Below are positions 5,557 to 26,803 of a stretch of DNA of 64,000 bases, piece by piece. The first letter of the stretch is position 1. Each line of letters starts with the position of its first letter. The notes under the pieces are model-generated. The model had not been told where the DNA came from and did no database searches. It worked only from the letters and a program-made list of their open reading frames with translations. Location of the stretch: assembly GCA_034428395.1 (NCBI GenBank), contig DAOUHX010000424.1, positions 62,679 through 126,678 on the forward strand, written 5' to 3'. The stretch comes from Caldilineaceae bacterium (GTDB lineage Bacteria; Chloroflexota; Anaerolineae; Caldilineales; Caldilineaceae). A program made the position numbers and the translations under genes.

Positions 5557-5565
5557 ATAACGCCT

Positions 5566-8497: not shown

Positions 8498-8680
8498 TCG
8501 ATGGCTCCTTTGCTTCTGGCGCAGCCGTCTGCTGTCAAAGAGAGCGGGAATATAGCTACATGGTAAGGCGAGCAGGACGCCATTGTCAAGTGAAGCCGAC
8601 GTTCCCCAAGTCATTGCGTGCAACCCGGAACTCCACTGCAAGCATCCAGACCCCTGGCAGCAACTAAGTCATTCGCGGCC

Positions 8681-9516
8681 CCCGCAGTTCCTGGCCACTG
8701 ACAACTGCCAACTGGCTACTGCCGTTGTACGGTCGGGCCGTTCCGGCCCTCCCTTGTGCGGGGGGACACCCCCCCGCAACGCCCCCCTGTAGCTATGCCA
8801 CCGTGCGTGCGCTTCTCCAGTTTGTGTGCCAGCGCCCGGGAGATGATGCCACCGTGCCTGCGCGTCTCCAGCCTGCGTGCCAGCGACCGGGAGATGCTGC
8901 CACCGTGCCTGCGCAATTCCAACTTGGCGCCGACCCCCCGCGTACACGACGCCAGCATGCCCGCCCGGCTCCCGCAGTTCGAATCACGACTCACGACTCA
9001 CGACCCACGGCCGTTCCGGCCCTCCCTTGTGCGGGGGGACACCCCCCGCAACGCCCCCCTGTAGCTATGCCACCGTGCGTGCGCGTCTCCAGCCTGTGTG
9101 CCAGCGACCAGGAGATGATTCCACCGTGCCTGCGCGTCTCCAGCCTGCGTGCCAGCGACCGGGAGATGCTGCCACCGTGCCTGCGCAATTCCAACTTGCC
9201 GCCGACCCCCCGCGTACACGACGTCTGCGTGCCCGCCCGGCGCCCACATTTCGACTCACGACCCACGACTCACGACCCACGACTCACGACTCACGGCCGT
9301 TCCGGCCCTCCCTTGTGCAGGGGGACTCCCCCCGCAACGCCCCCTGTAGCTCTGCAACCGTGCGTGCGCGTCCCCACCTCGTCGCCAACCGAGCCCCGGT
9401 TCGACCCAGCTCCCACCTTCCCCACCGGTTCCTCGCCACTGGCAACCGGCAACTGGCAACTATCCACTATCCACTATCCACTATCCTCTGTCCTCTGTCC
9501 ACTGGCCACTGCAGTT
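8681..9516. repeat. Nested tandem repeat array: three head-to-tail units with 51-bp sub-repeats, G-run/C-run hairpins and 7-bp micro-arrays
   Basis: Units start at 8736, 9009 and 9295 (periods 273 and 286 bp). Each opens with GGCCGTTCCGGCCCTCCCTTGTGCGGGGGGACACCCCCCGCAACGCCCCCCTGTAGC. 51-bp sub-repeats start at 8796/8847/8898 and 9068/9119/9170. Heptads (T/C)CACGAC lie at 8984-9011 and 9249-9297. The array is flanked by TGNCNAC heptads at 8692-8719 and 9433-9509. Confidence 0.9.
9433..9509. repeat. 7-bp periodic array (11 units, consensus TNNCNAC)
   Basis: Reads TCGCCAC TGGCAAC CGGCAAC TGGCAAC TATCCAC TATCCAC TATCCAC TATCCTC TGTCCTC TGTCCAC TGGCCAC, then TGCAG. Confidence 0.9.
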
Positions 9517-10005
9517 CTGCGCATCCGGTCCCGCCGTCCCCTGCAAGAGGCTCCGAAACGTGCTATACTGCAAGGTCGAGCCCGAACACAACCAGGCTCT
9601 GGACCCCAACGCGCTGCATGCACACACCTGCCCGCCCACCATGCCCGGACCGCCATTCATGTCGACCTGCTCCGAACCGAACGTCCGTATCCTGCCCCAA
9701 GCGAACTTCGCTCCGGGCATTGCCGGTAACAACTCGAAATGCGCAGACCTGCCGTCCGCCGCGCCGCCCGCACACACTGTAGTGACGCACGCCATGCGGC
9801 ACATGCCGGCGCCGCCGTCATCCGGTTCTGTATCCTGTCACGAAAAGCAGGCAGCTGTCGCTGTATTGCGCAATTCCTGCGCTCAAAACGACATCTTTTG
9901 CGCGTTCTCACGACAAAAACGACAGGAACTGACCGCGGCCGCATCCTGCTACGAGAGTCCATGCCGATATCCTGTCACGAGAAGACCGAAAAATTTTTTA
10001 AAGTT

Positions 10006-10421: not shown

Positions 10422-10596
10422 TGCCAACCATGCCCCGCTCGGCAACCGTATGGCGCACCCGTCGTCTCAAGGTAAGTCTTCACGAGCGCGGCGCTGCCAA
10501 GCCGCAATCTTGAATTGCGCAACTGTTCAAATAGGCCATCCTCCCGCCTTGCAGGCAGCAATCCAGAAATCTTCACAAGGATTGGCAGGTATCAGC

Positions 10597-12081
10597 GTGG
10601 CAACGCAAAAGGAAACGGAAATACCCCCCGGTCTGGCTCTGTTCAGTAACTATGCCCTGGACACCGACTACTTCGACGAGATGTTCCAGATGGATGGTAG
10701 GCCGCGCGATTCCTACCGAAAACTACTGCAAAGTATCCTTGAGCTGCAGGCGAACGAGCTGACGCAGCGTCAGCAGGCGGCCGACCTGACCTTCTTGAAC
10801 CGGGGCATTACCTTCACGGTCTACGGCGAAGAATCGACCATCGAGCGGATCTTCCCCTATGACATTCTGCCCCGTATCGTCAGCGCGCAGGAGTGGGACA
10901 CGATAGAGCGCGGCCTCATTCAGCGGATACACGCGATCAATCTTTACCTGCGCGATGTCTACCATGAGGGCCGCATTTTGCAGGAGGGGGTCATCCCGTT
11001 CGATCTGGTGTACAGTTGCCAGAACTACCAGCGGGAAATGCGCGGGCTCCATGTCGCCAACGACGTCTACACCACAATCGTCGGCACCGACCTTGTCCGC
11101 CTTCCCAGCGGAGAATTCGCCGTGCTGGAGGATAACCTGCGCGTTCCCAGCGGCGTCTCCTATATGCTCGCCAACCGCGAGGTGATGACCCAGGTCTTCC
11201 CGGGCATGTTCGGCGGCTACGGAATCCGATCGATCGCCCACTACGGGCAGGCGCTTCTGGAGCGGCTCCAGGCGCTGACGCCCAAAGGGCGCGACGCCAC
11301 CGTCGTGCTGCTGACGCCCGGCATCTTTAACTCCGCCTACTTCGAACACACATTCCTGGCGCGCGTGATGGGGATCGAGCTGGTCGAAGGCGCCGACCTG
11401 CTGATACGCGACGGCTTCGTCTACATGCGCACGACCGGCGGTCTCCAACGCGTTGACGTCATCTACCGCCGCGTCGACGATGAGTACATCGACCCGCTGC
11501 ACTTCCGTACCGACTCGGTCCTCGGCATTCCTGGCCTCTTCAACGCCTATCGCGCCGGCAACGTAACGCTTGCCAACGCCATGGGCACCGGAATCGCCGA
11601 CGACAAGGCGGTCTACGCATTCGTACCCGAGATGATCCGATACTACCTGGGCGAGGACCCAATTCTGCAGAATGTCGAGACCTATCTGTGTTCGCGCGAG
11701 GACGAACGGGCGCACGTTCTCGAAAACCTGGACAAGCTGGTGGTAAAGGCGGTCGGCGAGTCTGGCGGTTATGGCATGCTGATCGGGCCCTTCAGCACCA
11801 AGGACGAAAGGGAGAAGTTCCACCGGCAGATCCAGGCCGACCCCCGCAACTACATCGCACAGCCAACACTCCGCCTTTCACGCGCGCCCTGCTATATCGA
11901 CGGCAACGTCGTCTCCCGCCACGTCGACCTGCGGCCGTTCATTCTGTACGGCGGCTCCCCCGACGATACGGTCATCGTCCCCGGGGGCCTCACGCGCGTC
12001 GCGCTACCCGAAGGGTCGCTTGTTGTCAACTCCTCCCAGGGCGGCGGCAGCAAGGACACCTGGGTGCTGGAGAACAACTGA
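10597..12081 (+). CDS. Circularly permuted ATP-grasp type 2 protein (COG2308 family)
   Basis: The long conserved body ([72 protein letters not shown]..) is typical of this family. Start uncertain: GTG 10597 is my choice; the track ORF begins at 10450. Confidence 0.8.
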
Positions 12082-12106
12082 GTGATAGGAGCGAGAAACT
12101 TAGCTC

Positions 12107-13090
12107 ATGCTTTCACGATCTGCTGACAGTCTGTACTGGCTCGGACGCTACATGGAGCGGGCCGAACACACGGTCCGTCTCTTGAGAGTCCGGCTCAACT
12201 TTATGGTGGGGCAGGCGCGGCCGCGACAGGCCGGGAACGATAAGGGCTGGCAGCAGTTCTTCACTGCCTTGCGCCAGCCCGCGCCGTTGACCGAGAGAGG
12301 GTATGTGGACGGCGAAGCCGCCCTGAAGATGGCCCATGATCTCACCTTCAATGGCGACAATCCGCATTCCATCTCCGGTTGCATCAGCTTGGCCCGCCAG
12401 AACGCCCGCTTCGTGCGCTCCCAACTGAGCAGCCAGGTATGGGAGCACATGAACCGGCTCTATTTGCGGCTGCACTCGTGGCAAGGGCACCACAACTGGC
12501 ACGACGAGCGCGACAACTTCTTTCGCGAGCTCGAAAGCAGCGTCTCTCTCTTCCAAGGTCTCGCCGTCTCTTCGCTCCTGCACGATGAGGGCTGGCACTT
12601 CATCCAGGTCGGCTCGCACCTGGAGCGCGTCCAGGCTGTCTGCAGCCTCATGGACGCCCACTTTAGATACTTCGGCGTCGACGGTGGGAAGAAATTGGCG
12701 ACGGAGGATCCGCTCAGCGGGATCGGCGTCCTGCGGGCATGCAACTCCTTTGAGCCGTACTGCCGCGTCTACGACCCGCGCCCTGAAATCAGCCAAGTGA
12801 CTTCATTCCTGCTTCTGAGCCCCGACCTGCCCAATTCGGTTAGATTCAACGTGACGCAGATCTCGCAGCAGCTTGAACAGTTGGCCGCAGCCACAGAGAC
12901 GCGCCTTGCCGCCGACCTCAACCGGATGGCGGGCAAGCTGCAGGCCCATCTGCAATACAGCCAGCTCGAAGATGTGATCGAAGTGGGGCCGGCTGCCTTT
13001 CTGGGAGAGGTCTTGAGCGCGTGCGACCAGATCCACGAAGCGCTCTACGATACATACATCAACTATCCGGCCGAAGAGGCGTTTGCCTGA
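12107..13090 (+). CDS. Alpha-E domain protein (COG2307 family)
   Basis: 327 aa. The N-terminus MLSRSADSLYWLGRYMERAEHTVRLLRV is the hallmark opening of alpha-E proteins. It follows the ATP-grasp gene after 25 nt. Confidence 0.85.
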   Translation: MLSRSADSLYWLGRYMERAEHTVRLLRVRLNFMVGQARPRQAGNDKGWQQFFTALRQPAPLTERGYVDGEAALKMAHDLTFNGDNPHSISGCISLARQNARFVRSQLSSQVWEHMNRLYLRLHSWQGHHNWHDERDNFFRELESSVSLFQGLAVSSLLHDEGWHFIQVGSHLERVQAVCSLMDAHFRYFGVDGGKKLATEDPLSGIGVLRACNSFEPYCRVYDPRPEISQVTSFLLLSPDLPNSVRFNVTQISQQLEQLAAATETRLAADLNRMAGKLQAHLQYSQLEDVIEVGPAAFLGEVLSACDQIHEALYDTYINYPAEEAFA

Positions 13091-13114
13091 CAGCCCCCAA
13101 GAACTCCTGGAGCG

Positions 13115-14095
13115 ATGAACTACTACACGATTCACCACCACACGCGCTACCGCTATGAAGCTGCGGTCAGCGAGAGCACGATGGAAGTGCGGATGCAGCC
13201 CCGCACCGACCGGCAGCAGCGCTGCCTCAACTTTCAGCTGGCCATCAACCCGCATGCCCAGGTTCTGACCACCGACGACTGCGTGCAAAATGTGATCCAC
13301 TATTTCGACATTCCTAGGAGCCACGCCGAACTGGTCCTGCGCGCGCAAAGCCTTGTTATGGTACAGGAAGGTCCCGCCCTGCCTGACGCATTGGCTGGGT
13401 CGGAATGGGATGCCCTGGAGGAGACAGCGGCCGCAGGGCGGATGTGGGACTGGCTGGCGCCGAGCCACTACGCACGCCCGACGTCCCTCCTCACCGCATT
13501 TTCAGAGGAGATCGGCTTCAGCCGCCAACAGGACCCACTGACCGCCATCCTGCACCTGAATGAAAGCGTTCACGACGCCTTCGAGTATATGCCGAAGAGC
13601 ACCGCGGTCGATTCCCCGATCGACACGGCGTTGGAGAACCGCCGCGGCGTCTGCCAAGACTTTACACACGTGATGACTGCGGTGCTGCGCCAGCAGGGCA
13701 TACCGGCCCGCTACATCAGCGGATACGTGTTTCAGGACCCGGAGAAAAAGAAGGAGCAGGACCTGTCGAGCGCCTCGCATGCCTGGGTTGAGGCCTTTCT
13801 GCCTGCCGTCGGTTGGATTGGGCTGGACCCCACCAACAATTCGCTTGTCGAAGACAAGCATGTCCGCATCGCCATTGGACGCGATTACGCCGACGTCCCA
13901 CCGACCAGGGGCGTCTACAAGGGGAATGTCAAGAGCGAACTGACCGTCGGCGTCCACATCTCCGAGACCGAAGACGAGGAAATCCCGACCGACCTGCTCG
14001 ATAACGGACACTGGACGCCGAGGGAGCAAGTAGAGCAACTGGTCGCCGAGGAGAAGCAGCGCGCCGACCAGCAACAACAGCAACAACAGCAGTAA
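13115..14095 (+). CDS. Transglutaminase-like cysteine-protease-fold protein (Bact_transglu_N + transglutaminase core) with an acidic/poly-Q C-terminal tail
   Basis: YTIHHHTRYRYEAAVSES (N-domain); RRGVCQDFTHVMTAVLRQQGIPARYISGY...SHAWVEAF...GLDPTN gives the Cys-His-Asp core. It ends ...EEKQRADQQQQQQQQ*. Confidence 0.85.
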   Translation: MNYYTIHHHTRYRYEAAVSESTMEVRMQPRTDRQQRCLNFQLAINPHAQVLTTDDCVQNVIHYFDIPRSHAELVLRAQSLVMVQEGPALPDALAGSEWDALEETAAAGRMWDWLAPSHYARPTSLLTAFSEEIGFSRQQDPLTAILHLNESVHDAFEYMPKSTAVDSPIDTALENRRGVCQDFTHVMTAVLRQQGIPARYISGYVFQDPEKKKEQDLSSASHAWVEAFLPAVGWIGLDPTNNSLVEDKHVRIAIGRDYADVPPTRGVYKGNVKSELTVGVHISETEDEEIPTDLLDNGHWTPREQVEQLVAEEKQRADQQQQQQQQ

Positions 14096-14150
14096 AATGG
14101 CCGGCCCCGAGTTCAGACCGGCGGGCTGACACCTTTCGCAAATGCCTCGG

Positions 14151-14471
14151 CTACTGCATTACCGACTTGGCAGTAGGCACGAGGCGCATCACCTTAATCG
14201 TCTCGCGATTGATAAGTTCGGGAATGCGGGGCGCGATCTGGTCCAGCCACTCGTTCGACTCGTAGACAGCCCCGTACAGCGCCTCCCGTTCGGCCTCGTC
14301 AGCGAAACGGCGCATCCACACGTAGCGGTCTTCATCCTGCTCGTCGATGAACGAGCCGGCAATGACCATCCCTTTTGAAACCTGGAACGGAATGATAACG
14401 CTTTCCATGTAGGTCACCCATTCGGCGCGCTTGCCGGGCCGACACTCGTAGATTCGATATTCGTACAGCAT
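14151..14471 (-). CDS. NIPSNAP family protein
   Basis: MLYEYRIYECRPGKRAEW...YVWMRRFADEAEREALYGAVYES is the NIPSNAP pattern. ATG 14471 is preceded by AGGAG at 8 nt. Confidence 0.7.
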   Translation of the reverse strand: MLYEYRIYECRPGKRAEWVTYMESVIIPFQVSKGMVIAGSFIDEQDEDRYVWMRRFADEAEREALYGAVYESNEWLDQIAPRIPELINRETIKVMRLVPTAKSVMQ

Positions 14472-14506
14472 ACGACGCACTCCTGTCTCTCGGCTGATGA
14501 ATTTGT

Positions 14507-15907
14507 TCAGTCGGCCATGGCCGGCTCCGCCTGCGCCTCGGACAGCAGACGCATGGGACGGTCGCCCTCGACTTCGTAGGTGGAAAAAGTCGGCAGGTGC
14601 TCGATGTTGGCCTCAAACATCCGGTTGACCATGTCGCGTATCTCGGCCATCGTCAGCACCGCCGTGGTCAGCGGATCGTGCAGGATCGCCTGGAAGATCT
14701 TGCGCGGGTCCCCCTCGAGAATGCCATCGACAGCCATCTCCTCTATCTGTGCGCTCAACCCGGTCAACATGGCCACCGAGGGCGGGAGCGGGCCAACGCG
14801 GACGCTCTCCAACCCGTTCCTGCTTGCCCAAACGGGGATCTCGACGCAGGCCCCGATCGGCAGATTGTCCACGAGGGGCGTCTCGCCGCTGCCATTGGGC
14901 ACGTTGCCATTGAATTGGAACGGCTCGCCACCCTCAAGCGCATTGATGATGTAGGCAGCGTACTCGTAACCGCGCGTCAGGTCGAGCGGCGCCGGGTTGT
15001 CCAGCCATTCGATGATCTGCTCGCGCCAAGTCTCCTCGCGCCCCGAATAGTGCTTTAGAACATAGGCGTATTCGCCAGGATTCCAGCCCGTGCCGTGCGT
15101 GCAGTACTTCTCGATCAGGTCCGGCCGTTTGCGGAACCAGGGATTGTACTCCGAGTGATGGCCGCTCGACTCCGTCGGATAGTAGTCGAGGTGCAGGTAC
15201 ATCTCGTTGCGGACCTGTTCCTCGTTGTAGACCTCGGGCCTCTCGGTAATGGCCTCGCGGATGAGCGGGTAGGCGTCCTCGCCATTCCAGTTGAACTCGG
15301 TGTACCAGGCCATATGGTTGATACCGGCGCAGGTGAACGTGATCTCATCGGCCGGCGCGCCGATCCAGCGGGCAAGCATATTGGCGGTGCCCTGCACGCT
15401 ATGGCACAGGCCCGTCGCGACGATGTCGGTCTGCGACTGTATAGCGCGGCAGTTGATCACCATCGGATTCGTGTAGTTGAGCATTACCGCGCCGGGGCAG
15501 AGCCGCTCCATGTCACGCGCGATGTCCAGCATGACGGGCGCTGTGCGCATGGCGCGGAAAATACCGGAAGGGCCGCGCGTATCGCCGATATTGGTGTCGA
15601 TGCCGTACTGTTTGGGAATCTCGATGTCGCTGCGCCACACGTCGGTCCGGCCGACCAGAATGGTGACGATCACGTAGTCGGCGCCGTCCAGCGCCTCCTC
15701 GCGACTGAGCGTCGTCTCGACGCCCGCGGGATAGCCGCCCTCCCGTATGATGCGCCTCACCGCCCGCTCGATGTATTCGAGCTTGGCAGGGTCGATGTCC
15801 ATCAGGCAGATTGTGGCGTCCTCAAGTCGAGGGAAGGTCAGGACGTCCTTGACCAGCTTGCGCGTAAAGCCGAAGCTTCCGGCTCCTATGAAAGTTATCT
15901 TTGTCAT
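14507..15907 (-). CDS. Glycoside hydrolase family 4 (alpha-galactosidase/alpha-glucosidase, NAD/Mn-dependent)
   Basis: 466 aa. [21 protein letters not shown] (Rossmann), [14 protein letters not shown] and INHMAW motifs are typical of GH4 (MelA/AglA-like). Confidence 0.85.
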
Positions 15908-16075
15908 CTGTTTACCCCGATTGCCAGTTTGTGTGTTCCTCTTTTCGGCCGCGCTGCCGCCGGCAAAAGAGGTGACGGGGCGTCCACGCCGATGGCGTAA
16001 CGCTCCTACATTGAGCTGCCTCGCGTAAGAATTCTAGCACCGCAGCGATGTCTCCCCAATGCGACACGCGGCCGT

Positions 16076-16435
16076 TCAACCCAGGAGACGGCCAAAGAAA
16101 GGTACCGGGGCGCGCCGTGCGCGTAAGACGTTGACGATCCCCGCGACCCAGGCTACCACCACCGCAATGTAGACCGCGACGACAAGGGCAAAGACGTAGG
16201 CCGCGATGACGCCGCCAAACGGTATGAAGGAAACAAGGGCCGAAAAGAGAAACCAGGCGACCGGCGCCAGGACCAGCGCCAGCACGAGCGTCAGCCCCTG
16301 CAGTGCGTGGTAACGTCCGAAGCCGTCCTCCCTGCGGAGCAGGAGAATGTAGGCCGAGCCCAGGACAGGAGTGAGATAGGCGAGCAGGGCAACGTCGATA
16401 TTGATCCTCCCCGGGCTGCCCGCGCTCTCACTCAT
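16076..16435 (-). CDS. DUF4870-like small membrane protein
   Basis: 119 aa from ATG 16435. [31 protein letters not shown] resembles the DUF4870 signature, and there are 3 TM segments. The start overlaps the upstream ATPase stop (ATGA, 16432-16435). The track ORF is over-extended to 16576. Confidence 0.5.
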
Positions 16436-17448
16436 TCCGTCTCTCCGATTCCCTGCAGTGTCAGTTCGCGCGCGAAGTGGCAGCTGGCGAAGTGGCCCGG
16501 CTCGATTTCCTCCAACTCCGGCTCCTCCTGCTGGCACAGCTCCTGCGCGTATAGGCAGCGAGGATGAAAGACGCATCCGGGCGGCGGGTTGGCGGGACTG
16601 GGAATGTCGCCCTCAAGGATGATGCGATTCAGTTTGATTTCAGGATCGGCAGGGGGAATGGCCGATACGAGAGCCTCAGTGTACGGATGCAGCGGTCGGC
16701 GCAGAAGTCTGTCCGATCCGGCGATTTCGACCAGCCGGCCCACATACATCACCGCGATGCGGTCGCACATGTGCTCGACCACCGACAGGTCATGCGCGAT
16801 GAAAAGGTAGGTCAGGCCCAACTCGTCCTTCAGCCGCTGCAGCAGGTTCAGGACCTGGGCCTGGATCGACACGTCCAGCGCCGAGACCGGCTCGTCCGCG
16901 ATAATCAGCCGCGGGCTCAACGCCAATGTGCGCGCCAAGCCGATGCGCTGCCGCTGCCCGCCCGAAAACTCGTGCGGATAACGGCGCATATAGTTGGGGT
17001 CCAGCCCGACCGAGTGCATCAGCTGCGCAACGCGGTCCTCCAGCGCACGGCCTGACGCCTCTTTGTGGATGATAAGCGGTTCGCCGATCAGGTCCTTCAC
17101 CGTCAGCCGCGGGTTGAGCGAGCTGAACGGGTCCTGGAAGATCATGCGCATCTCTTTGCGCAGCGGCTTCATCTCCGCCTGCTCGATGTTGGCGATGTCG
17201 AAGCGGCGGCCGTCGTCCGCCGTGTACCAGATTTCACCGGCCGTCGGGTCGTAGAGCCTGAGAACACTGCGTCCGACAGTCGTCTTACCCGAGCCGCTCT
17301 CACCCACCAGGCCGAGCGCCTCGTTGCGGCTGATCGCAAAACTGACGCCGTCGACAGCCTTGACGTGCCCGACCACCCGCTGCAAGAACCCTTGGCGGAT
17401 TGGGAACCACTGTTTCAGATCGTTGACTTCGAGCAGAGTGCTATCCAT
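16432..17448 (-). CDS. ABC transporter ATP-binding protein, oligopeptide/dipeptide type (OppF/DppF-like)
   Basis: Start re-set to [15 protein letters not shown] (ATG 17448). Walker A GESGSGKT, signature [13 protein letters not shown], Walker [13 protein letters not shown], and the C-terminal oligopeptide-ATPase extension are present. Confidence 0.85.
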
Positions 17449-17459
17449 GTCTGTCTGTA

Positions 17460-19280
17460 TCAGGGCGCGGCCGGCGCCTCTTCCACTTCGATGAATTCGC
17501 TTGCAAGCAAAATGTCGGCATCGTCCCACCCCTTCCACTCTTGCAGCTGCTGGAACGCCCTCCGGAAAATGAGCTGCACCTCCACCGTCGCCGTACGCCC
17601 GCCCGTCGCGTCGAAGCGGTAGCTGCTGCTGCGCGTGGCCAGCGCTGGGATGCGCGTATCCGATGCAAGCTCCACCATGCGCCAGTGGGAAAAAGTGGGC
17701 TCCTCGCCCGTCAGGGTATCGCGCAGGATCTTGGCGAATCCCTGGCCGGCTTCGCCCGCTACGTCTCCCGCCCATTCCGGCAGTACATCGCCGCCCAGCA
17801 GCGGCATCGAACTGCCGTCGCCGTCGGTCGCCCGCACCACCAGCAGCACTTGCCGCAACGGCGACCCGGTTGGATAGTGATGGCCCGCCCCGGTGTTGGT
17901 CACAGCCGCGTTTACGACCAGCTCGCCGCCCTCAATCTCCGCCGAGACCTCCAGCGCAATGGCGCTGCGCAGAAACATCCCGTCGCTCGCCCCGGGCATG
18001 TCGTGCTGGTGAATCTGGTCCAACTCCCGGAAGAGACCGCCCTTCTCCGGGTAAACGAAGTAGCTGCGCTGCGCCCGTTCCGCCAGGTCCCCCAGGCCCG
18101 CCGGCAACGTGCGGCCGCTGACATTCTCGAGCCACGCCGCGGTCTGCACCAGCGACTCCATGCCCGTCGTCAGGCGCGGCGCAGTCGGCATGTGGCAGCT
18201 CTGGCAGGTCGCGCCGTTCTCCTCGTCGTTGTACGGGCTTTCCAGCCACTCCCCGTACGAGTTATAGATCTCAGTCGTATCGTTGACGCCGTAGTGACAG
18301 GCGGCGCAGAACGCGCTCTCGCCGTGCAGCTGATTGAAGCTGTCCATTGGCCGCGACACGTCGTCGACGCTGCCCATCAGCAGGTCTTCGCCCGACTTGG
18401 GTCGGTAGAGTGTCAGCGACAGAATGCCAGGCATCGCCGGGTCAGGCAGCAACGAGTCCGTGTAGAAACGCACCGCGCCGATCTTGTGGCAGAAATCACA
18501 CGAGATACCCTCGGCGGCCACGCCGACAGCCTCATTCGGGCTGACCCCCTCGGGCAGCTCGTCGCTGGCATCCTCTGTCTCCTGCATGTGGCAGCCGCTC
18601 CAGCCGCAGGTGTTGTCCGCATCCAGCTTCGACGCCATCGGTGTGTGGCAGGAGGCGCAGTTGCCGTCTCGCTTGGGAAAGTCCACCTTGAAGCCGGGCC
18701 CGTAGTAGGGGTATTCCGGGTCGCGCGTGCGCGGCAGGCCGGTATCGTAGTTGCTGTTGCGGCTGCGATTGCCCTCGACGTCAGTGCCGTTGTACATCGT
18801 CATAAAACGGGAGTTGACCGCCGACTGGCTGTGTGCGTCCCGCAGCCACTCCGCAAACGAGGGATGACACTCTCCGCAGTTTTCCGACGGCTCCCAGTCA
18901 TAGACGGTGTGATCAACCCGGTTGTGCGGGTGCAGATCGATTTCCACGTCGATGTCGCCGCCGCGCGCCTCGGTCCAGCCGAAAATATAGCCTTCCGCCC
19001 AGGCAACCAGGGTAACGCTCTCCGCGGTGGAAAGGCCTTCGATAGTGAAGCCCCCGTCCGCAGCTGTGTACGTATGATTGCCCGTCGTCTGCACGCGCAC
19101 AAGCGCGCCCCCAACCGGCCCGTCGATGTCGCTGACGCTGCCGCTCACCGAGGCCGTGGCGGGCTGCGGCCAGGCAAAAATGACGGTCACGGCGCCCAGG
19201 ACCAGCACAACCGCCAGGAGGATGAGAAGAATCAGCCGGCGCGCCAGTTTGCCAGACAGATTCAAGCCGTCCTGGAACAT
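17460..19280 (-). CDS. Membrane-anchored multihaem cytochrome c with an N-terminal carboxypeptidase-regulatory-like domain
   Basis: 606 aa from ATG 19280 ([31 protein letters not shown] anchor). Five CxxCH motifs (CGECH, CASCH, CDFCH, CAACH, CQSCH) plus one [19 protein letters not shown] motif near the C-terminus. The track's 872-aa version runs into oppC in another frame. Confidence 0.7.
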
Positions 19281-19321
19281 CCTGCGCCCGCCCAACTCAG
19301 TTCTCCATGAATAGCCGCGCT

Positions 19322-20470
19322 TTAGACGATCGAATAGGGGTCGGCCGCGTCGCGCAGGCCGTCGCCCAGAAAGTTGAATCCTAGCACGGCCACGATTATG
19401 AAGATGACCGGCGTCATGATCCACGTGTGCGTGCCCAGCGTCTGCAAATTCTGGGCGTCGCGCATCAGAAAGCCCCAGCTGACCAGCGGCTCCTGGATGC
19501 CGATGCCCAAAAAGCTCAGGAATGCCTCCGCCAGAATGATTTGGGGGATGGTGAGCGTGAGCACAACGATGATGTGGCTGATCGAGTTGGGGAAGAGATG
19601 CAGGAAAATGATGCGGGCGTCGGACGCGCCCATCTCCTTGGCCGCCAGAATAAAGTCTGTCTCGCGGTAGGCCAGCACCTTGCCGCGCACCTCGCGCGCC
19701 AATAGGGTCCACGAGAGCAGTGAGAAGATGATCACCATAATGATGAAAACCTGCAGCGAGTCCCACGTCCGTGGGATGATGGCGGCCAGCGCCAGCCACA
19801 GCGGCAGCTGCGGAAACGACGCCACGAACTCGACGAAGCGCTGGATAATGTTGTCTGTGATGCCGCCGTAGTATCCCGAGATGATGCCCACGACCGCGCC
19901 GACCACGATGCTGACAATCGTTGCGAACATGCTCAGCGAAAGCGAGATGCGCCCTGCCGTGCACGCCCGACCCCACAGGTCTCTTCCCTGCTTCTCCGTC
20001 CCCATCAGGTGGATTTTGCCCCCCTCGTCCACGCCGAAAAGGTGCCACCGCGTCGGGATCAGCCCCAGGATCTTCCACTCCCAGCTTCGGACAAAAAGCT
20101 TGATCTCATAGCGCTGCGCCGGGTCTTCCTCCCACAGCGGCTCAAAGGTCTTGGGATCGATGGTCACAACCAGGTTGTAGACGAATGGGCGCAGATGGAA
20201 CTTGCCTTCGTCGTCGATCATGCGGATGCGCGTCGGCGGGATGAAGCTATCCTGCAGATTGGCGTCGGTCGGGTCGACCGGCGCGAAGAATTCGGCGAAC
20301 AAAGCCAGGATGACAAGCGAGAGCACCATGAGGCCGCCGGCAATGGCCGGTCGGCTCTTCCTGAAGCGCTGCCACACAAGCTGAAAGTAGGACTCGTGCT
20401 GTTCCTGGTCGGCGCCCGAGTCCGGGTGGTCTGCTAGTATTCTGTCATTGACGTTTGCAGTTTCCATCAT
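19322..20470 (-). CDS. ABC transporter permease (OppC/DppC-like)
   Basis: 382 aa. N-terminal OppC-type extension, 6 TM, and a binding-protein-dependent transport signature region ([20 protein letters not shown]). Confidence 0.85.
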
Positions 20471-20508
20471 TTCCGGCGCCAGGCCGGACTGTCCTTCCTG
20501 TCAGAAAT

Positions 20509-21537
20509 CTACGAAAACCGCACCCGCGGGTCCAATATCGCCAGCGAAATGTCCGCGATCAGATTCCCCGCCACCAGCAGCACGCCGTAGATGAGCAAAC
20601 AGCTGGCTGCAATATAGATGTCCTCATTGCGCAGAGAAGTCAGCAGCAGCGTTCCAATCGTCGGCAAACCCATCACGATCGAGGCTTGCAGCTCACCCTG
20701 CAGCATGTAGGGCAGCACGGTGCCCTGGTACATGATGATCGGATGCAGCGCGTTGGGCACCGCGTGGCGACGCATCACCTGCCCGTCGGTCAACCCCTTC
20801 GAACGGGCCGTCGTTACATACTGCGCGTTCAGCTCGTCGAGCATGTTGCCGCGCATCACGCGCATGTTGCGCGCCACACCGCCCAGACCGGCGATGAACA
20901 CGACCGGCCAGATGTGTTTGAGAAGATCGATCAGCTTTTCCCACGTAAGGCGTATCTCCTCCATGCTGCCGAACGCCCACGGCACGACCACGTAGTGCGG
21001 CGAATGGAAGGCGGTAACGTGCTCCTGCTCCAATGTAAATACAAGGAAAAACATGATCGCCAGCGCGATCCAGAAGCGGGGAAGCGCCGAGAGAACAAAG
21101 GCAAAAAACGCGGCCAGATTGTCGGCTACCGAATACTGCCGCGGCGCGACGAATATGCCGATCACAATCCCAACAATCGTTGAAGTCAGGTGCGCCAGCA
21201 CCGCCAGGAGCAGCGTGCGCGGAAAACGCTCCGCGATCAGTTCGCCAACGTCCCGCTTGTAGGCGAACGAAAAACCGAAGCTGCCCTTCGTCACCATGTC
21301 CCTGATCCAGACAAAGAACTGCAAAGGCAATGGTTTGTCCAGGCCGTAGCGCCGGCGGAAAAGCTCGGCCTGCTCCTCGGCCTGGGCTTCGGTTGCGCCG
21401 CCCTGCTCAATCAGAAATGACTTGTAGCCGTCGGCATAGTCGCCCGGCGGCAGCTGGATCACAATAAAGCTGACCAGCGCAATGCCCAGTACAACGGCAA
21501 CCGAGACGGCAAAACGGCGAACGATGAACCCAATCAT
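20509..21537 (-). CDS. ABC transporter permease (OppB/DppB-like)
   Basis: 342 aa. MIGFIVRRFAVSVAVVLG start and TARSKGLTDGQVMRRHAVPNAL (EAA loop) are typical of OppB/DppB. Confidence 0.85.
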   Translation of the reverse strand: MIGFIVRRFAVSVAVVLGIALVSFIVIQLPPGDYADGYKSFLIEQGGATEAQAEEQAELFRRRYGLDKPLPLQFFVWIRDMVTKGSFGFSFAYKRDVGELIAERFPRTLLLAVLAHLTSTIVGIVIGIFVAPRQYSVADNLAAFFAFVLSALPRFWIALAIMFFLVFTLEQEHVTAFHSPHYVVVPWAFGSMEEIRLTWEKLIDLLKHIWPVVFIAGLGGVARNMRVMRGNMLDELNAQYVTTARSKGLTDGQVMRRHAVPNALHPIIMYQGTVLPYMLQGELQASIVMGLPTIGTLLLTSLRNEDIYIAASCLLIYGVLLVAGNLIADISLAILDPRVRFS

Positions 21538-21592
21538 GGAGTGCGCAAAATGAGTGAGGAATGCAATGAATTACGCCAGGTACAGGAATGAA

Positions 21593-21628
21593 GAGTGAGG
21601 AGCAGCGGGCTGCCACTGCTCCTCACTC
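21593..21628 (-). other. Perfect 13-bp stem-loop in the SBP-permease intercistronic gap
   Basis: GAGTGAGGAGCAG (21593-21605), 10-nt loop, CTGCTCCTCACTC (21616-21628). It lies 24 nt past the SBP stop on the transcribed strand. Confidence 0.6.
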
Positions 21629-21651
21629 CTTGCACTATACGTCTCTACACG

Positions 21652-23829
21652 CTATTCGCTGTCATAGGTCGCGATGACGCCCGGGCGGATCTGCTCGATC
21701 TGCTCATCAGGCGACACCCAGACCTGCTCGGCCATGACGTTGTCCCATGTCCACTGGTACATGAACACGGGCATGCCGGCCGGCACATTGTTAAAGCGCT
21801 TCGCAGCCGCAAGCCCGTAGCGGCCAACGAAGACACCGGCAAAGTAGACGTTGTCAGTCACGATCCGGTTGTACTCGGCCATCTGACCAAGGCGGACATT
21901 CGTGTCCGGCTCGGCACAGAACGCCTCGACGATGTCGACCAGCTCCTGCTCAAAGTCGAGAAGCTCGCGCGGTTCAGAGCCTTCGCGGTGGAAGGAGAAT
22001 TCCCTCGTCAGCGGCGCCAGATCGGTGCAGCGCGTGAAGGGAACGGCATAGACCTGGCTGTCGCGGTCGACACGCAGCTCCCACTCGCCCGACTCGTTCA
22101 TCTCGCGGCGCGCCGCGCTGTTCAGCGGGCGAACGTTGATCTGCACACCCAGGTCGCCGAGCAGCGTCACCGCCGCCGCGCCCACGGTCTGCGTCTCTTC
22201 GGCATCCTCACTCGTCACGAGCGCAATCACCAGGTTTTCGCCGCTGGCCAGCCGGTCGGACGGCCAGTTCAGCGTGCCGTCGCCATCCGTGTCCTCGAAG
22301 CCCAGTTCGGCCAGCAGCGCAGCCGCCGCCTCAGGGTTGTTGTTGAAGTAGGAAACGGTGCCGCGGTCGAAGTAGGAGGAGCCGGGGAACAGACCGCCGG
22401 CCCAGCCGCGCAGGAACGGGCCGCGCAGAATCGACTGCGAGATCCCGTCGCGGTCCAGCGCGAAGCTGAATGCCTTGCGGAAGCGCACGTCGCGGAACAG
22501 CTCGCGCAACGCCGCGTCGCGGTCATCGCTTACGCCTAGCGAGGTCGAAAGATTGAACTTGATGCTGAAGCCCAGCGTCTCCGGACCCCACTCGACGTAG
22601 AAGTGAGCGTCATCCTCTTCGGCCCGCTTCAGCGTCTCGATGAAGGTGCTAGGGTTCTCCAGGTTGGAGTGATCGGCCGTGCCCGCCAGCGTACTCAGCG
22701 TGCGGCCTACACCGGACGGACCCTTCTCGAACACGACCTCATCCAGGTACGGCAGCTGGTTCCCTGCCTCGTCAACCGACCAGAAGTAGGGGTTGCGGCG
22801 CAGGATCATCAGCTCGTCAGTTATGTACTCGACCGGCACGAACGGCCCCAGCACGACCGGAATCTGGTCCGGCGGCATCGAAGCTTCGAAGTCCACATAG
22901 TCCATGTCCGAGTTGTACCTGGGATGCAGTGGCTTCAGGTAGTGCGCCGGCGAGATGTGGAAATCGCCCTCGTCCATCTGGAATAGCGACTGGACCGGGA
23001 ACTGCACTGGGAAGACGAACTTGAAGGAGTAGTCGTCGATCACCTCAAGCTGGGTCATCTCTTCACCGAACATCCAGGCCGATCCGCCCTTGGGCGACTG
23101 GACGTTGGGGTCGACGATCATGTCCTCCCACGTGAACAGAACGTCCTCGGTCGTGAACGGGTGGCCGTCCGACCACCTCGCGCCCTCGATCAGGTTCATC
23201 GTCAGCTCATAGCCGTCCTCGCTCCACTCCCAGCTCTGCGCCAGGAACGGCAACGGCTCGAGCGAATCGGACCGACGGAAGATGGGGCCGGACTTGAGAA
23301 GCGAAGCAAACGCCGCCGCCTCGATGCCGAACCAGCCCGCGCTCTGCCCCGCACCGCGATTGAATCCCTCGGTCGGGCAGGCCGAGAAGTCGCGCCAGAC
23401 TCCGCCATAGACACCGATTCCCTCAGCCATGCCGCTCTCAAGAACGACGCGCGGCGCAACCGGCAGACGCTCTTCGACCGGCGGCAGCTCACCGGCGGCC
23501 ACCAGCTCGCTGATCCAGTCCGGCTCGCTGTAGGAATCCAGCGACTTGTAGGTCACGATCTGGTCCAGCGGCAGCTTCGCAACGGGCCGGCTGCCAACGA
23601 TCAACTGCGGCTCAGGATACTCGCTCGGGGAGAGATCGACCTCCATCATCTCCTCTTCCGCCTCTTCCTCCTCGGCCGCGGCCTCTTCAGCAGCCGGCGC
23701 CGACTCCTCTTGCGGCGTGTCAGCCGCCGGTTCCGGCTCGTCACCGCCGCCACATGCGCTGAGGACCATCGAAGCGATGATCAGCAGCGATAGCAAAACG
23801 GAAATCGTCCTCTTGCGTCGAAATGACAT
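21652..23829 (-). CDS. ABC transporter substrate-binding lipoprotein, family 5 (OppA/DppA/NikA-like), unusually large
   Basis: 725 aa from ATG 23829 (AAGGAGG upstream). Lipobox LSAC, followed by an acidic linker (EEAAAEEEEAEEEMM) and a family-5 SBP body. Confidence 0.85.
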   Translation of the reverse strand: MSFRRKRTISVLLSLLIIASMVLSACGGGDEPEPAADTPQEESAPAAEEAAAEEEEAEEEMMEVDLSPSEYPEPQLIVGSRPVAKLPLDQIVTYKSLDSYSEPDWISELVAAGELPPVEERLPVAPRVVLESGMAEGIGVYGGVWRDFSACPTEGFNRGAGQSAGWFGIEAAAFASLLKSGPIFRRSDSLEPLPFLAQSWEWSEDGYELTMNLIEGARWSDGHPFTTEDVLFTWEDMIVDPNVQSPKGGSAWMFGEEMTQLEVIDDYSFKFVFPVQFPVQSLFQMDEGDFHISPAHYLKPLHPRYNSDMDYVDFEASMPPDQIPVVLGPFVPVEYITDELMILRRNPYFWSVDEAGNQLPYLDEVVFEKGPSGVGRTLSTLAGTADHSNLENPSTFIETLKRAEEDDAHFYVEWGPETLGFSIKFNLSTSLGVSDDRDAALRELFRDVRFRKAFSFALDRDGISQSILRGPFLRGWAGGLFPGSSYFDRGTVSYFNNNPEAAAALLAELGFEDTDGDGTLNWPSDRLASGENLVIALVTSEDAEETQTVGAAAVTLLGDLGVQINVRPLNSAARREMNESGEWELRVDRDSQVYAVPFTRCTDLAPLTREFSFHREGSEPRELLDFEQELVDIVEAFCAEPDTNVRLGQMAEYNRIVTDNVYFAGVFVGRYGLAAAKRFNNVPAGMPVFMYQWTWDNVMAEQVWVSPDEQIEQIRPGVIATYDSE

Positions 23830-24013
23830 CAAACTTCCTCCTTGAAAGGGTAGTGGAATCTGTTTGCCGCGACGCGCCAATGTGAGACGCATTGCGACAA
23901 GAATTGAAAAAAGTCTCTCAACCTTCTATGCAGACCGCAGCCAGTTCCGCGACCTACCGGTCTTTTGAAGGATGCTGAAGCGGCAGGAGGACCCATCTCC
24001 AACCAAAACGGCA

Positions 24014-25075
24014 TCAGTCATGAAGCCAGCAAGCCACGGAATGGCCGGGCTCGTGCTCCTTGTACTCGGGCGTCTGCTCCCAGCATATCTCCATCGCTTG
24101 CGGGCAGCGATCGGCAAAGGCGCAGCCGCGAATCTCGTCCGAAGGGCTGGGAACCATACCACTGATGGGGACCAGCATCTTGTCCTCTTTGCGCCCAAGC
24201 ACAGGCACCGAGTTGAGTAGCCCGATGGTGTAAGGATGCTTGGGGCTATGGAAAATCTCGTAGACGGGCGCGTATTCGACGACGCGACCCAGGTACATGA
24301 CGGCCACGTGATCGGCCATCTGTGAAACGACGCCCAGGTTGTGGGTGATCAGGACGATGGCGGAATCGAAGTCTTCTTGCAGTTCTCGCATCAAATCCAG
24401 GATCTGCGCCTGCACCGTTACATCCAGTGCGGTCGTCGGCTCATCGGCAATCAGGATCGACGGATTGCAGCTCAGCGCCAGCGCAATCATGACCCGTTGC
24501 CGCATTCCCCCGCTGAGCTGGTGCGGGTACTCGTAAATGCGACGGTCGGGGTCCGCGATGTGGACCTTGTTGAGCATCTCTTCCGCCCGCTCGAGCGCAG
24601 CGCGGCGCGAAAGGTTCTGGTGCAGCAGTACCGACTCCGAAATCTGCCGGCCCACGGGGTGCAGAGGATTCAAAGAGGTCATCGGCTCCTGGAAGATCAT
24701 CGCGATCTCGGCGCCGCGAATATCGCGCAGCTGGCGGCCGCGCGGGTCAAGCTGCACAATGTCGACTGTCTCGCCGTCCTTGCGGTGCAGCAGGATTTCT
24801 CCCTCTACGATCTTGCCCGGAGGTGACTGGATCAGGCGCATCACGGAGCGGAAGGTGACGCTCTTGCCGCAACCGCTCTCGCCGACAACGCCGAGTGTCC
24901 TCTTGCGTCCAAGCGATACGGTTACGCCGTCAACCGCCTTCACGACACCGCGTTCGAGGAAGAAATGAGTCTTAAGATCCCTCAGCTCGAGGATCGGGTC
25001 TTCGGCTTCGCGACTCGCGTCCGCGGCCGCGCTCACCCGTTGGGTTACAGCCATTGGTCGGCAGAATCCCGCCAA
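24014..25075 (-). CDS. ABC transporter ATP-binding protein (OppD/DppD-like)
   Basis: Walker A GESGCGKS, signature LSGGMRQRVMIALAL, Walker B LIADEPTTALD. The start may be the internal ATG at 25054. Confidence 0.85.
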   Translation of the reverse strand: MAGFCRPMAVTQRVSAAADASREAEDPILELRDLKTHFFLERGVVKAVDGVTVSLGRKRTLGVVGESGCGKSVTFRSVMRLIQSPPGKIVEGEILLHRKDGETVDIVQLDPRGRQLRDIRGAEIAMIFQEPMTSLNPLHPVGRQISESVLLHQNLSRRAALERAEEMLNKVHIADPDRRIYEYPHQLSGGMRQRVMIALALSCNPSILIADEPTTALDVTVQAQILDLMRELQEDFDSAIVLITHNLGVVSQMADHVAVMYLGRVVEYAPVYEIFHSPKHPYTIGLLNSVPVLGRKEDKMLVPISGMVPSPSDEIRGCAFADRCPQAMEICWEQTPEYKEHEPGHSVACWLHD

Positions 25076-25229
25076 TTGGTTTCGCTACTGGGACTTAGGA
25101 ATCGATCTGAAACAAAGTGCCAATCTCGGCCCAGCGGCAAATGCTAGGAGCCAATTCAGTCGCCCATTCTGCCGGCACGAACATGGCCCTGGCGTTGCGG
25201 AAGAAACAAACCGGCCAGAAGTTGCAGCA

Positions 25230-25258
25230 ATTCTAGCCGCGTGCGCATTTCTTGTCAA
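25230..25258 (-). promoter_or_regulatory. Candidate sigma70 promoter of the opp-type operon
   Basis: On the minus strand: TTGACA (25258-25253), 17-nt spacer, TAGAAT (25235-25230). About 150 nt upstream of the first ATPase gene. Confidence 0.5.
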
Positions 25259-25319
25259 TTTTTGGAGTGTCTGGGTAGCGGTGGCGTTTTGTGCGCGCCT
25301 GGCTGAACAGGGCTTGCAG

Positions 25320-26309
25320 CTAGCCGGCGCCGTTCGGCCCCGCAGCGCGCAAGACCTTGACGCGCAACCAGATGGCGGGCAAGCGCCTCAACTTCCTCCA
25401 GGCGCTCACATGGGCGCGTCGGCTAAAGACATCGTAGTCGTGCGCTTCAATGTCTGCCAGAATTGCACGATACAGGTCGGCAGCAACGGAGATCGCAAAG
25501 TGTCCGTCGGCGCTAAGGAGGGAGATGCCGGGCCAGGACTCCCGATAAAGCCGGCGCGTGCGGTCGATCTGGAAACGCATGAACTCTCGCCAGCGACCGT
25601 CGACGATCCCCGCATCGATATCGCTTTCCTCGAGGCCGAAACGGTGAAGGTCCTCAAGCGGCAGGTACAGACGACCCGCCCGCCAGTCCTCGCCCACGTC
25701 TCGCAGAATATTGGTCAACTGTAGGGCCACGCCCAGCTTCAGCGCGTACGGAAACGCCGCGGCGGAACTGAAGCCGATAATGTACATGCACATGAAGCCT
25801 ACCGTTGCAGCCACGCCATAGCAGTAAGCCGTCAACTCTTCAAAGGTCTCATACCGGCTGATGTCGATATCACGTGCGACTCCCTGAAAGAGTTGCTCTG
25901 CGAAAGCCGGTGGCATGCGATAGCGCAGGCGGGCGTCTGTCCAGGCCGCGACGATGGGATCGTTTGCATCGACCACCGTGGTCATGGAACGCGCACGCCA
26001 GGCTTCAAAGGCAGTTCTCAATTGAATCGCGTTCGCACGGCCTTCAGCCGGCCTGTCGACGATGTCGTCCGTGCTGCGACAGAAGGCGTACAATGCACGG
26101 ACGGAGCGGCGCTTGCGCTTGGGAAGGAAACGCGAGGCCGTAAAGAAGGAGCGGCTGTTGATCGCGGTGATCGCTTCACAATAGTCATAGGCGAGCGCAA
26201 GGGCCTCTTCGTTTGCGACCTGAAGGGCCGGCGCCAAGCCTTCCGACAGCCTGGCTTCGTTCGCGAGCGAGAGAAGGGGACGCTCCCATTCACTGATCAC
26301 ATTAGCCAT
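25320..26309 (-). CDS. crtB: Phytoene synthase
   Basis: [36 protein letters not shown] and [22 protein letters not shown] are the two Asp-rich squalene/phytoene synthase signatures. Start re-set to ATG 26309. Confidence 0.85.
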
Positions 26310-26803
26310 TCGAGCACCTTTGCTCCTGGATCCCACGCGCTGCCAAAGACTGCCGCGAGTCTAAGCATGAAGATTGCCGTCTGTCAGTAAGAACGTATCC
26401 CATCCTGGCCAGTCTCGTCAAGGCAAAATGAAGTGAGTGCCCAATTCTTCCAAAAATTCGAGGAGCCAAACGAGGAGTCAACACTCAGCCGGCCATGTGG
26501 CCTCTGGGAAGGGGAAATGGCGCCAGCCGAAAACGGGCGTGGCACCAAGACGGCGCGTTCATCCTACGCCTCGGTCGCCCGCGGCTGCTCTTCAACTGAA
26601 AGCGTGTGATCTCGGGATGGCGGTTCGACGGGGAACCTGAGAGTGGGGAACTGTTGCCAGGGCCCAGGTCGCTAAGCGAGCTTAACCAAGGGGCAGTCCG
26701 CTGCAAACAATAGGGCAGTTGCGTCTTCTTGCCTCATTCGCCCGCCTTGCATCTGCCCTTTTTGAAGGACAGGCTGAACGACGTATCGCCCTGTTCGCCG
26801 GGA

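Follow-up and report, generated by a model that had tools for sequence, protein, structure and literature searches.

We analysed a 64,000-nucleotide stretch of contig DAOUHX010000424.1 (NCBI GenBank assembly GCA_034428395.1, positions 62,679 to 126,678 of the forward strand) from a Caldilineaceae bacterium of the Chloroflexota, hereafter the window, and focused on a gene for a multihaem c-type cytochrome that lies inside an operon for an ATP-binding cassette (ABC) importer. Both components are of known kinds; what is new is the hexahaem clade to which the cytochrome belongs, its obligate residence in the operon of a sugar ABC importer, and a covarying cysteine in the importer's substrate-binding protein (SBP). 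Pfam models recovered all the components of an importer of the Opp/Dpp/Nik (PepT-type) class, namely permeases with OppB_N and OppC_N domains (both with BPD_transp_1), two ATPases with oligo_HPY domains and a family-5 SBP. Open reading frames (ORFs) and their translations gave the minus-strand order oppD, SBP, oppB, oppC, cytochrome, oppF, small transmembrane (TM) protein and GH4 glycosidase, with gaps of 41 nucleotides (nt) between oppC and the cytochrome gene (19281-19321) and 11 nt between the cytochrome gene and oppF (17449-17459), in agreement with the gaps and, as far as the small TM protein, the order given in an earlier annotation of this DNA (the original prediction). In window coordinates, the operon and its putative boundaries are as follows:

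25230-25258, minus strand: promoter-like site TTGACA-17-TAGAAT (11/12) upstream of oppD, a candidate operon promoter (consensus match only).
24014-25075, minus strand: oppD-type ABC ATPase with ABC_tran and oligo_HPY domains (Pfam/NCBIfam).
21652-23829, minus strand: family-5 SBP lipoprotein of 725 amino acids (aa), lipobox LSAC, predicted AgpA/MelB-type alpha-galactoside-binding, with Cys151 in the motif WRDFSACPTEGFN (Pfam, PDB match).
20509-21537, minus strand: oppB-type permease (Pfam/NCBIfam).
19322-20470, minus strand: oppC-type permease with OppC_N and BPD_transp_1 domains (Pfam/NCBIfam).
17460-19280, minus strand: hexahaem c-type cytochrome of 606 aa, c552/ExtKL superfamily (motifs, homologs, AlphaFold2 model, Foldseek, profile).
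16432-17448, minus strand: oppF-type ABC ATPase (Pfam/NCBIfam).
16076-16435, minus strand: small TM protein of 119 aa with an ATGA overlap with oppF (ORF), at the position of a MamF_MmsF-like gene in relatives.
14507-15907, minus strand: GH4 glycosidase, alpha-galactosidase type, NF011657 (Pfam/NCBIfam).
14100-14122, minus strand: terminator-like hairpin downstream of GH4, a possible operon end (consensus match only).

A consensus scan of the operon found neither a promoter-like site nor a convincing terminator at the junctions of the cytochrome gene, and the terminator-like matches inside the operon were weak, lay within coding sequence and were no commoner than in shuffled sequence; no Rfam element was found in 14000-26500. 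Related operons are comparably compact, with median gaps of 66 nt between oppC and the cytochrome gene (n=63) and 30 nt between the cytochrome gene and oppF (n=59). The original prediction had called co-transcription very likely, and the promoter-like site upstream of oppD, the lack of any at the junctions and the short gaps in about 60 relatives all favour it, but we grade co-transcription of the operon genes only as plausible. Two start codons are uncertain: the cytochrome gene may begin at a TTG at 19295 with GGAG upstream, as the N-terminus MGGRRKF of an 86%-identical homolog (P0002) matches this start, in which case the gap to oppC would be 26 nt instead of 41, and the SBP ORF reaches 23892, 21 codons upstream of its likely start MSFRRK (23829). 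The window copy of the small TM protein had no Pfam match.

Six haem-binding motifs occur in the cytochrome, CGECH at residue 135, CASCH at 208, CGWSGCH at 225, CDFCH at 261, CAACH at 325 and CQSCH at 359; together they contain all 12 of its cysteines, and the reading frame has no in-frame TGA. In an alignment of 72 homologs all six motifs are invariant, which would not be expected of chance occurrences of CxxCH, and the same alignment showed H150, H426, H467, M364, M428, P470 and R476 to be invariant and H424 and T471 nearly so. An AlphaFold2 (AF2) model made with the 72 homologs had a predicted local distance difference test score (pLDDT) of 84 and a predicted template modelling score of 0.81, and in it an N-terminal helix leads into a first beta-sandwich and a helical haem region into a second one at the C-terminus. 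We distinguished the following elements within the gene:

19173-19253, minus strand: N-terminal hydrophobic helix, residues 10-36, a predicted membrane anchor or signal-anchor (sequence, AF2).
18936-19157, minus strand: CarboxypepD_reg-like beta-sandwich, residues 42-115 (Pfam, AF2, Foldseek).
17991-18908, minus strand: helical haem-binding region, residues ~125-430, with the six motifs and candidate distal ligands H150, H424, H426, M364 and M428 (motifs, homologs, AF2).
18588-18608, minus strand: CGWSGCH, residues 225-231, an extra sixth haem motif found in the transporter-embedded clade only (alignment).
17481-17960, minus strand: C-terminal immunoglobulin (Ig)-like beta-sandwich, residues 441-600, a homologue of the c552 stem domain (AF2, Foldseek, profile).
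17865-17891, minus strand: GAGHHYPTG loop, residues 464-472, with the invariant H467, equivalent to the PHxxPTGAPFR loop of c552 (homologs, profile).

The CarboxypepD_reg match in Pfam was below threshold (29.6 bits, cut-off 32.3), and the fold is backed by Foldseek matches to the transthyretin-like domains of carboxypeptidases D and N and to the SusC NTE domain. The motif invariance, the model and the fold matches bear out the original prediction of a genuine multihaem cytochrome c that has a TM anchor and a carboxypeptidase-regulatory-like domain. Counting conserved residues, four histidines and two methionines would be available as candidate distal ligands for the six haems. Because of the TM anchor, the lipoprotein nature of the SBP and the presence of lipoboxes in some paralogues, the cytochrome probably faces outward and is extracytoplasmic. 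Some 40 residues are inserted after the last haem motif (residues ~366-405; 18065-18184, minus strand) and comprise two short helices modelled with low pLDDT; the insertion occurs mainly in Caldilineaceae-like closest relatives and a few others, and is absent in most Anaerolineae homologs.

A sequence search of the PDB with the cytochrome returned nothing at E<=1, and its nearest structural relative was found only by family profile and fold search. The best and only strong full-length Foldseek match was cytochrome c552 of Thermochromatium tepidum (5ZE8; E=5e-15, TM-score 0.68 normalised to target), which the family profile also matched (E=4.5e-11). The two proteins have in common a helical multihaem domain followed by an Ig-like beta-sandwich, the motif CxxCH-x6-W-x3/4-H at haem 1, an H-x-M motif after the last haem, and an H-x-x-P-T-G-x-P-x-R loop that is conserved in 38 c552-type fragments spanning it; the original prediction had associated the GHHxPTG motif with multihaem cytochrome families, and it is indeed common to the Ig-like domain of c552. 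Cytochrome c552 differs from the window protein in being soluble, with five haems and a chain that has 435 aa in the PDB sequence set and 385 residues in the model, whereas the window protein adds the membrane anchor, the CarboxypepD_reg-like domain and a sixth, CX4CH haem, is only about 16% identical, and is encoded in a Chloroflexota sugar-importer operon. Cytochrome c552, ExtKL/MccSep and related proteins form a family built of a five-haem cap and an Ig-like stem (bioRxiv 10.1101/2025.11.18.688581; PMC11976967). The window protein has the corresponding order of a helical multihaem domain and a C-terminal Ig-like beta-sandwich in the AF2 model and Foldseek matches, and with six motifs rather than five CxxCH, the extra one being CGWSGCH, it is a hexahaem variant. 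Matches to existing family models were weak (NCBIfam ExtKL, NF040886, 45.9 bits against a cut-off of 250, residues 132-365) or borderline (Pfam MtrC/MtrF domain II/IV, PF22113, 30.7 bits against a cut-off of 30). Membership of the c552/ExtKL (MccSep) superfamily, with a haem cap and an Ig-like stem, is in our view largely shown by the model, Foldseek and the profile.

No function has been assigned to c552; its superfamily has been associated with conduction and with extracellular nanowires made of cytochromes (PMC11976967). The polysulfide reductase MccSep has an active site formed by a Cys-ligated haem 2 and a selenocysteine (Sec) on an Ig-domain loop (bioRxiv 10.1101/2025.11.18.688581). MccSep/ExtKL of Geobacter sulfurreducens (GSU2937-2936) has the five-haem cap and the Ig-like stem in common with the window protein, and the stem loop of MccSep reaches the haem-2 pocket; it is defined by the Cys distal ligand C239 and by Sec/Cys (U325) in a D-G-U-P loop, and is a periplasmic homotetramer of sulfur respirers with no transporter link. 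The window protein is a member of the superfamily and yet not an MccSep-type enzyme, because it has no free Cys or Sec, and its ExtKL score is far below the cut-off. A query with the C-terminal fragment of c552, aimed at placing MccSep Sec325 on the GHHxPTG loop, returned only c552-type fragments. MtrC/OmcA and OcwA of Thermincola resemble the window protein as surface-exposed multihaem c-type cytochromes and through the borderline PF22113 match, and they differ from it in genomic context. OmcA/MtrC membership was rejected on a TIGR03507 score of 17.1 bits against 209.3, on six rather than ten haem motifs, and on the absence of these proteins, as of OcwA, from the top 50 Foldseek matches.

For the transporter, a match of the SBP in the PDB identifies its class. 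SBP residues 72-710 align to residues 15-656 of the chain of 6EPY, the alpha-galactoside-binding MelB of Agrobacterium fabrum, with E=5e-153, 514 bits and about 45% identity over 640 residues; further relatives in the PDB were Opp-type SBPs for chitin oligosaccharides and mannosides, together with chains labelled peptide-binding. The GH4 enzyme scored 487.7 bits on the NCBIfam alpha-galactosidase model NF011657 (cut-off 486), GalT and GalE are encoded downstream in sister operons that lack the cytochrome, LacI-type regulators lie upstream in 21 loci, and LacI- or AraC-type regulators precede closely related operons. The Sinorhizobium agp/melA locus is an AgpA/MelB-type alpha-galactoside system of the Rhizobiaceae, and the window operon has in common with such systems full-length SBP homology to 6EPY, Opp-family permeases and ATPases with oligo_HPY, and linkage to an alpha-galactosidase. 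On this sequence evidence the transporter is classified as an AgpA/MelB-type alpha-galactoside importer, of the sugar rather than the peptide class. The Rhizobiaceae systems differ in having no cytochrome, and MelB (6EPY) differs from the Chloroflexota SBPs in having Gly at the position of their invariant Cys and from the window SBP in not being a lipoprotein.

The original prediction had taken the importer to be of the peptide type and had described its SBP as atypically large; the 6EPY-like SBP, the GH4 enzyme and the GalT/GalE genes of sister operons contradict the former, and at 725 aa the SBP is of normal size because it belongs to the AgpA/MelB subfamily, in which the 6EPY chain has 683 aa. 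Family-5 SBP systems import nickel or haem in some bacteria, and import of nickel, haem or a metal chelate had been proposed for this operon as well, but none of our results speak for it. We rejected nickel, haem and peptide import alike, given the 514 bits of the SBP to 6EPY against 53 bits to NikA and 30.6 bits to HbpA, and given the sugar-type neighbouring genes. Tblastn of the window SBP against six loci from close Caldilineaceae (L001, L002 and L005-L008) showed 1-3 in-frame stops, which are probably located in the Ala/Glu-rich N-terminal part and probably reflect alignment across the leader or local frameshifts in metagenome-assembled genomes.

At least 1280 cytochrome homologs were found, with relatives in at least 327 species genomes, and every source that gives them a name annotates them as hypothetical or by the CarboxypepD_reg domain only. 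Among the 80 best genome loci for cytochrome relatives (the forward survey), opp genes of the window type adjoin the cytochrome in 47, down to 36-39% cytochrome identity, and where the flanks of these loci suffice the usual order is oppD, SBP, oppB, oppC, cytochrome, oppF. Hosts come from Caldilineaceae, Anaerolineae, Aggregatilineales, Thermoflexales and other groups, and two of them are in culture, Anaerolinea thermolimosa IMO-1 (L030) and Litorilinea aerophila (L018). Minor changes of order also occur: an oppF-cytochrome order was seen in three of the forward-survey loci, and oppC-oppF-cytochrome in L009-L011, L085 and L100. A reverse survey, in which an SBP alignment was the query against metagenome contigs, yielded 23 operons that were informative downstream of oppC, and 22 of these contain the cytochrome (19 as oppC-cytochrome, two as oppC-oppF-cytochrome and one cut by a contig end), leaving L095 as the only one without it. 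GH4 genes are present at 39 of 68 related loci and the small MamF_MmsF-like membrane protein at 37, and no other conserved redox gene was found in the opp neighbourhoods of these 68 loci.

The original prediction had allowed that the arrangement might be a chance insertion unconserved in any relative; both surveys instead found it maintained. We are highly confident of the identity of the cytochrome and of its conserved association with the importer, an association of which full-text literature searches found no description. Sister operons without the cytochrome (L095, L161-L169, L172 and L175, from Chloroflexota, KSB3 and others) have the order oppD, SBP, oppB, oppC, oppF, MamF_MmsF-like gene, GH4, often followed by GalT/GalE or AraA/aldolase genes, and their SBPs are 60-75% identical to one another.

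To compare cytochromes inside and outside importer operons, we used an alignment of the 80 genome-locus cytochromes and the window protein, of which 48 are operon-embedded and 33 lie outside opp operons. The motif CxWxGCH is present in 48/48 operon-embedded copies and in 0/33 of the others, in which it is deleted, and His424 is found in 43 of the 48 (the other five have N or R) and among the 33 only in L061; His424 is the likely distal ligand of the sixth haem. By profile alignment the extra haem falls between the equivalents of c552 haems 2 and 3, 13 residues after haem 2, the active-site haem in MccSep. A library clustered at 50% identity contained 477 superfamily clusters at E<=1e-30, in which two clusters (P0019 and P0292) stood far above all others with near full-length, single-stretch profile matches, as expected of the hexahaem clade. 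In this data set the hexahaem clade was found only inside AgpA/MelB-type importer/GH4 operons, and it is essentially Chloroflexota-specific.

The 33 pentahaem paralogues are about 36-44% identical to the window cytochrome and have their domains in the same order, with both the CarboxypepD_reg domain and the GHHxPTG loop, but they lack CxWxGCH and never occur in an opp operon; their hosts are Acidobacteriota, Verrucomicrobiota, Thermodesulfobacteriota and some Chloroflexota. Most of them lie immediately beside a gene for an 800-1020-aa Sortilin-Vps10/BNR (Asp-box) propeller protein (e.g. L052 and L064, also L021), and in two loci propeller and cytochrome are fused (L071, 1791 aa, 4251-9626; L078, 1544 aa, 4956-9590). 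Some partner propellers carry a PF06439 (3-keto-disaccharide hydrolase-like) or CarboxypepD_reg domain, and the haem-1 motif of the paralogues varies between CxxCH, CGHCM and CxxCK. At the non-opp loci only the BNR propeller protein recurs; an aldehyde:ferredoxin oxidoreductase is present in 5 loci, and ABC/FtsX, PD40 and CBM11 genes turn up nearby only sporadically. Thus the family seems to be a redox module joined to a partner protein that is extracytoplasmic and associated with carbohydrates.

The SBPs of the cytochrome-bearing operons have their own distinguishing feature, since all 60 with a readable motif have FSACPT, which contains Cys151. The SBP of L095 instead has FSAVQT, and among the SBPs recovered with it as query many have V, I, A or S there; eight further operons with Cys-less SBPs (P0121, P0127, P0139, P0197, P0140, P0133, P0137 and P0225) all lack the cytochrome and keep the other architecture, which makes 9/9 Cys-less operons without it. 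With a single operon that has the cysteine and no cytochrome (P0218, locus L171), the 2x2 table of 60 and 1 against 0 and 9 gives a Fisher p=1.5e-10 that is not corrected for phylogeny and overstates independence, because the sequences are related. In this sample Cys151 looks necessary but not sufficient for the presence of the cytochrome. The P0218 operon has its GH4 gene inserted between SBP and oppB, and an Omp85-family gene nearby, which suggests a diderm host. A further variant is the sister operon L172, where Ser replaces the SBP cysteine (FSASPT) and a 344-aa cytoplasmic 4Fe-4S (Fer4) protein (6787-7821) follows oppF in place of the small membrane protein.

We tentatively favour a reading that makes the cytochrome a redox accessory dedicated to the importer and acting at it outside the cytoplasm, which we consider quite possible, if somewhat short of an even chance. 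The cytochrome would be made together with the importer on the outer face of the membrane and would work on or with the lipoprotein SBP, as the pentahaem paralogues appear to do with the BNR/sortilin propeller proteins, and the sixth haem would provide an extra electron entry or exit point for the SBP partner. It might exchange electrons with Cys151 of the SBP or with its substrate adduct, so that the SBP would be kept or reset competent for binding and delivery, which would echo the sulfur redox chemistry of its relative MccSep; this Cys151-specific version we regard as rather unlikely. Bolder still, and in our estimate improbable, the operon may encode the first ABC importer with an integral multihaem cytochrome subunit, which would dock on the SBP and exchange electrons with Cys151, so that redox chemistry outside the cell would gate, or be coupled to, the capture or delivery of sugar. 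The Cys151 thiol could then be a haem ligand in trans or the carrier of a substrate adduct, and the family would be a modular "redox plug-in" for SBPs in Chloroflexota and for BNR propeller proteins elsewhere.

Several observations weigh against a role at the importer, the main weakness being that the operon encodes no obvious electron donor or acceptor, be it a quinol dehydrogenase or a different redox partner. Haem attachment is predicted from the motifs and their invariance, no gene for cytochrome c maturation was found within the window, and the cytochrome has a single TM helix. Alpha-galactoside uptake proceeds without a cytochrome in the AgpA/MelB systems of Proteobacteria and in the sister operons, and the hosts include aerobes as well as strict anaerobes, which constrains any single redox role. 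As to the cysteine, the P0218 operon shows that its link with the cytochrome is not strict, a neighbour-joining tree required 5 Fitch changes, so that few events could give most of the Cys/cytochrome signal, and a search for specificity positions in the SBP found no position besides Cys151 fixed between the groups but was circular for Cys151 itself, because the groups were defined by it.

Alternatively, the cytochrome could be a co-regulated electron outlet at the cell surface, like the multihaem cytochromes of other monoderms, that passes reducing equivalents from galactoside catabolism to extracellular acceptors (for example Fe(III), humics, O2 or partner cells) without contacting the transporter; its place in the operon would then serve only joint expression with the sugar pathway. 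A multihaem cytochrome tethered at the surface, weakly matching MtrC/MtrF domain II/IV and from a superfamily tied to nanowires and conduction, would suit this role, its expression is likely to be sugar-controlled given the LacI-type neighbours, and Chloroflexota such as Ardenticatena perform extracellular electron transfer with surface cytochromes (PMC5808234). Against this, the hexahaem clade is confined to the importer operon (48/48) and never lies in a respiratory or electron-transfer cluster, no conserved quinol oxidase or further cytochrome is nearby, and a general need for an electron sink leaves unexplained why closely related sister operons for similar sugars lack the gene; moreover, both the aerobe Litorilinea aerophila and strict fermenters are among the hosts, and MtrC, OmcA and OcwA are missing from the top Foldseek matches. 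We therefore prefer an accessory to a general outlet, on the grounds that the hexahaem clade occurs nowhere else, is missing from near-identical sister operons and has no respiratory partners alongside, and we judge the outlet unlikely, though worth keeping in view. The cytochrome might also be, or serve, an extracytoplasmic oxidoreductase that converts the glycoside before uptake, with the SBP binding only the product, for example through a redox change of a sugar that is modified or thiol-linked, or as the electron acceptor of a 3-keto-glycoside-type oxidation. This is suggested by MccSep, a true enzyme whose active site lies at haem 2 beside the Ig-domain loop, by the invariant H467 in the equivalent loop (if one assumes the equivalence of H467 and MccSep U325), by the variable haem-1 motif of the paralogues, as expected if some haems are catalytic, and by the PF06439 domain in some of their partner propellers. 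Yet without a non-haem Cys or Sec the chemistry of MccSep is unavailable to the cytochrome alone, four His and two Met for six haems would leave none obviously open, the operon encodes no dehydrogenase or flavin or pyrroloquinoline quinone partner, and the known alpha-galactoside substrates need no redox step, so that such processing strikes us as improbable.

A gene position between permease and ATPase that resembles that of a transporter subunit, and two beta-sandwich domains (CarboxypepD_reg-like and Ig-like) typical of surface-interaction modules, would also fit a redox sensor or gate through which the external redox state, O2 or NO modulates transport, or a non-redox scaffold that tethers or organises the SBP at the surface and in which the haems are structural; a sensing role had also been suggested in the original prediction. 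For a scaffold, six strictly conserved haems, one of them gained, would be costly, the protein has no domain for signalling output, and no precedent is known to us; either role appears decidedly improbable. The original prediction had suggested that a metal chelate, haem or nickel complex might be released or processed by reduction before it reaches an importer of the Opp/Nik type. This could draw on sub-threshold matches of the permeases and ATPases to Nik and Cnt models and on the nickel and haem importers among family-5 SBP systems, but the SBP scores given above and the GH4, GalT/GalE and LacI-type neighbours indicate sugars and make it very improbable. The same low standing applies to a chance hitchhiker gene that is functionally unrelated to the operon: in other lineages transporters of this type do without the cytochrome, and the position of the gene varies slightly, but it has been kept across Chloroflexota orders, through the range of identities and in the SBP-found operons described above, and it has acquired clade-specific innovations in the sixth haem and His424.

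Elsewhere in the window, a second family-5 SBP (643 aa)/oppB/oppC cluster at 36858-40913 (minus strand) has no cytochrome and no adjacent ATPase genes, and is followed at 32506-36797 (minus strand) by three PhyH-type (Fe/2-oxoglutarate dioxygenase-like) genes and a UxuA-like gene; another UxuA-like gene lies at 6550-7632. Directly upstream of the operon is a phytoene/squalene synthase-like gene (CrtB/HpnD-like; 25320-26336, minus strand), and a MerR and B12-binding (CarH-like) regulator is encoded at 28473-29873 (plus strand); together these two genes suggest light-responsive carotenoid control near the operon. A triad of circularly permuted ATP-grasp, Alpha-E and transglutaminase-like genes (10450-14095, plus strand) converges on the operon at its GH4 end, and three size-matched clusters of unannotated genes (8, 10 and 13) downstream of GH4 in close Caldilineaceae are probably the same ATP-grasp triad.

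In sediments, anaerobic digesters, activated sludge and sponges, the Anaerolineae and Caldilineae rank with the most abundant bacteria and also with the least understood, and sugar uptake is central to their ecology. The link between cytochrome and importer is directly testable, because two hosts have been cultured and the cytochrome-less sister operons can be used as controls provided by nature. Should the link prove mechanistic, redox chemistry would become part of how binding-protein-dependent importers operate, and a function would be gained for one branch of the c552/ExtKL superfamily, in which MccSep is the sole member of known activity.

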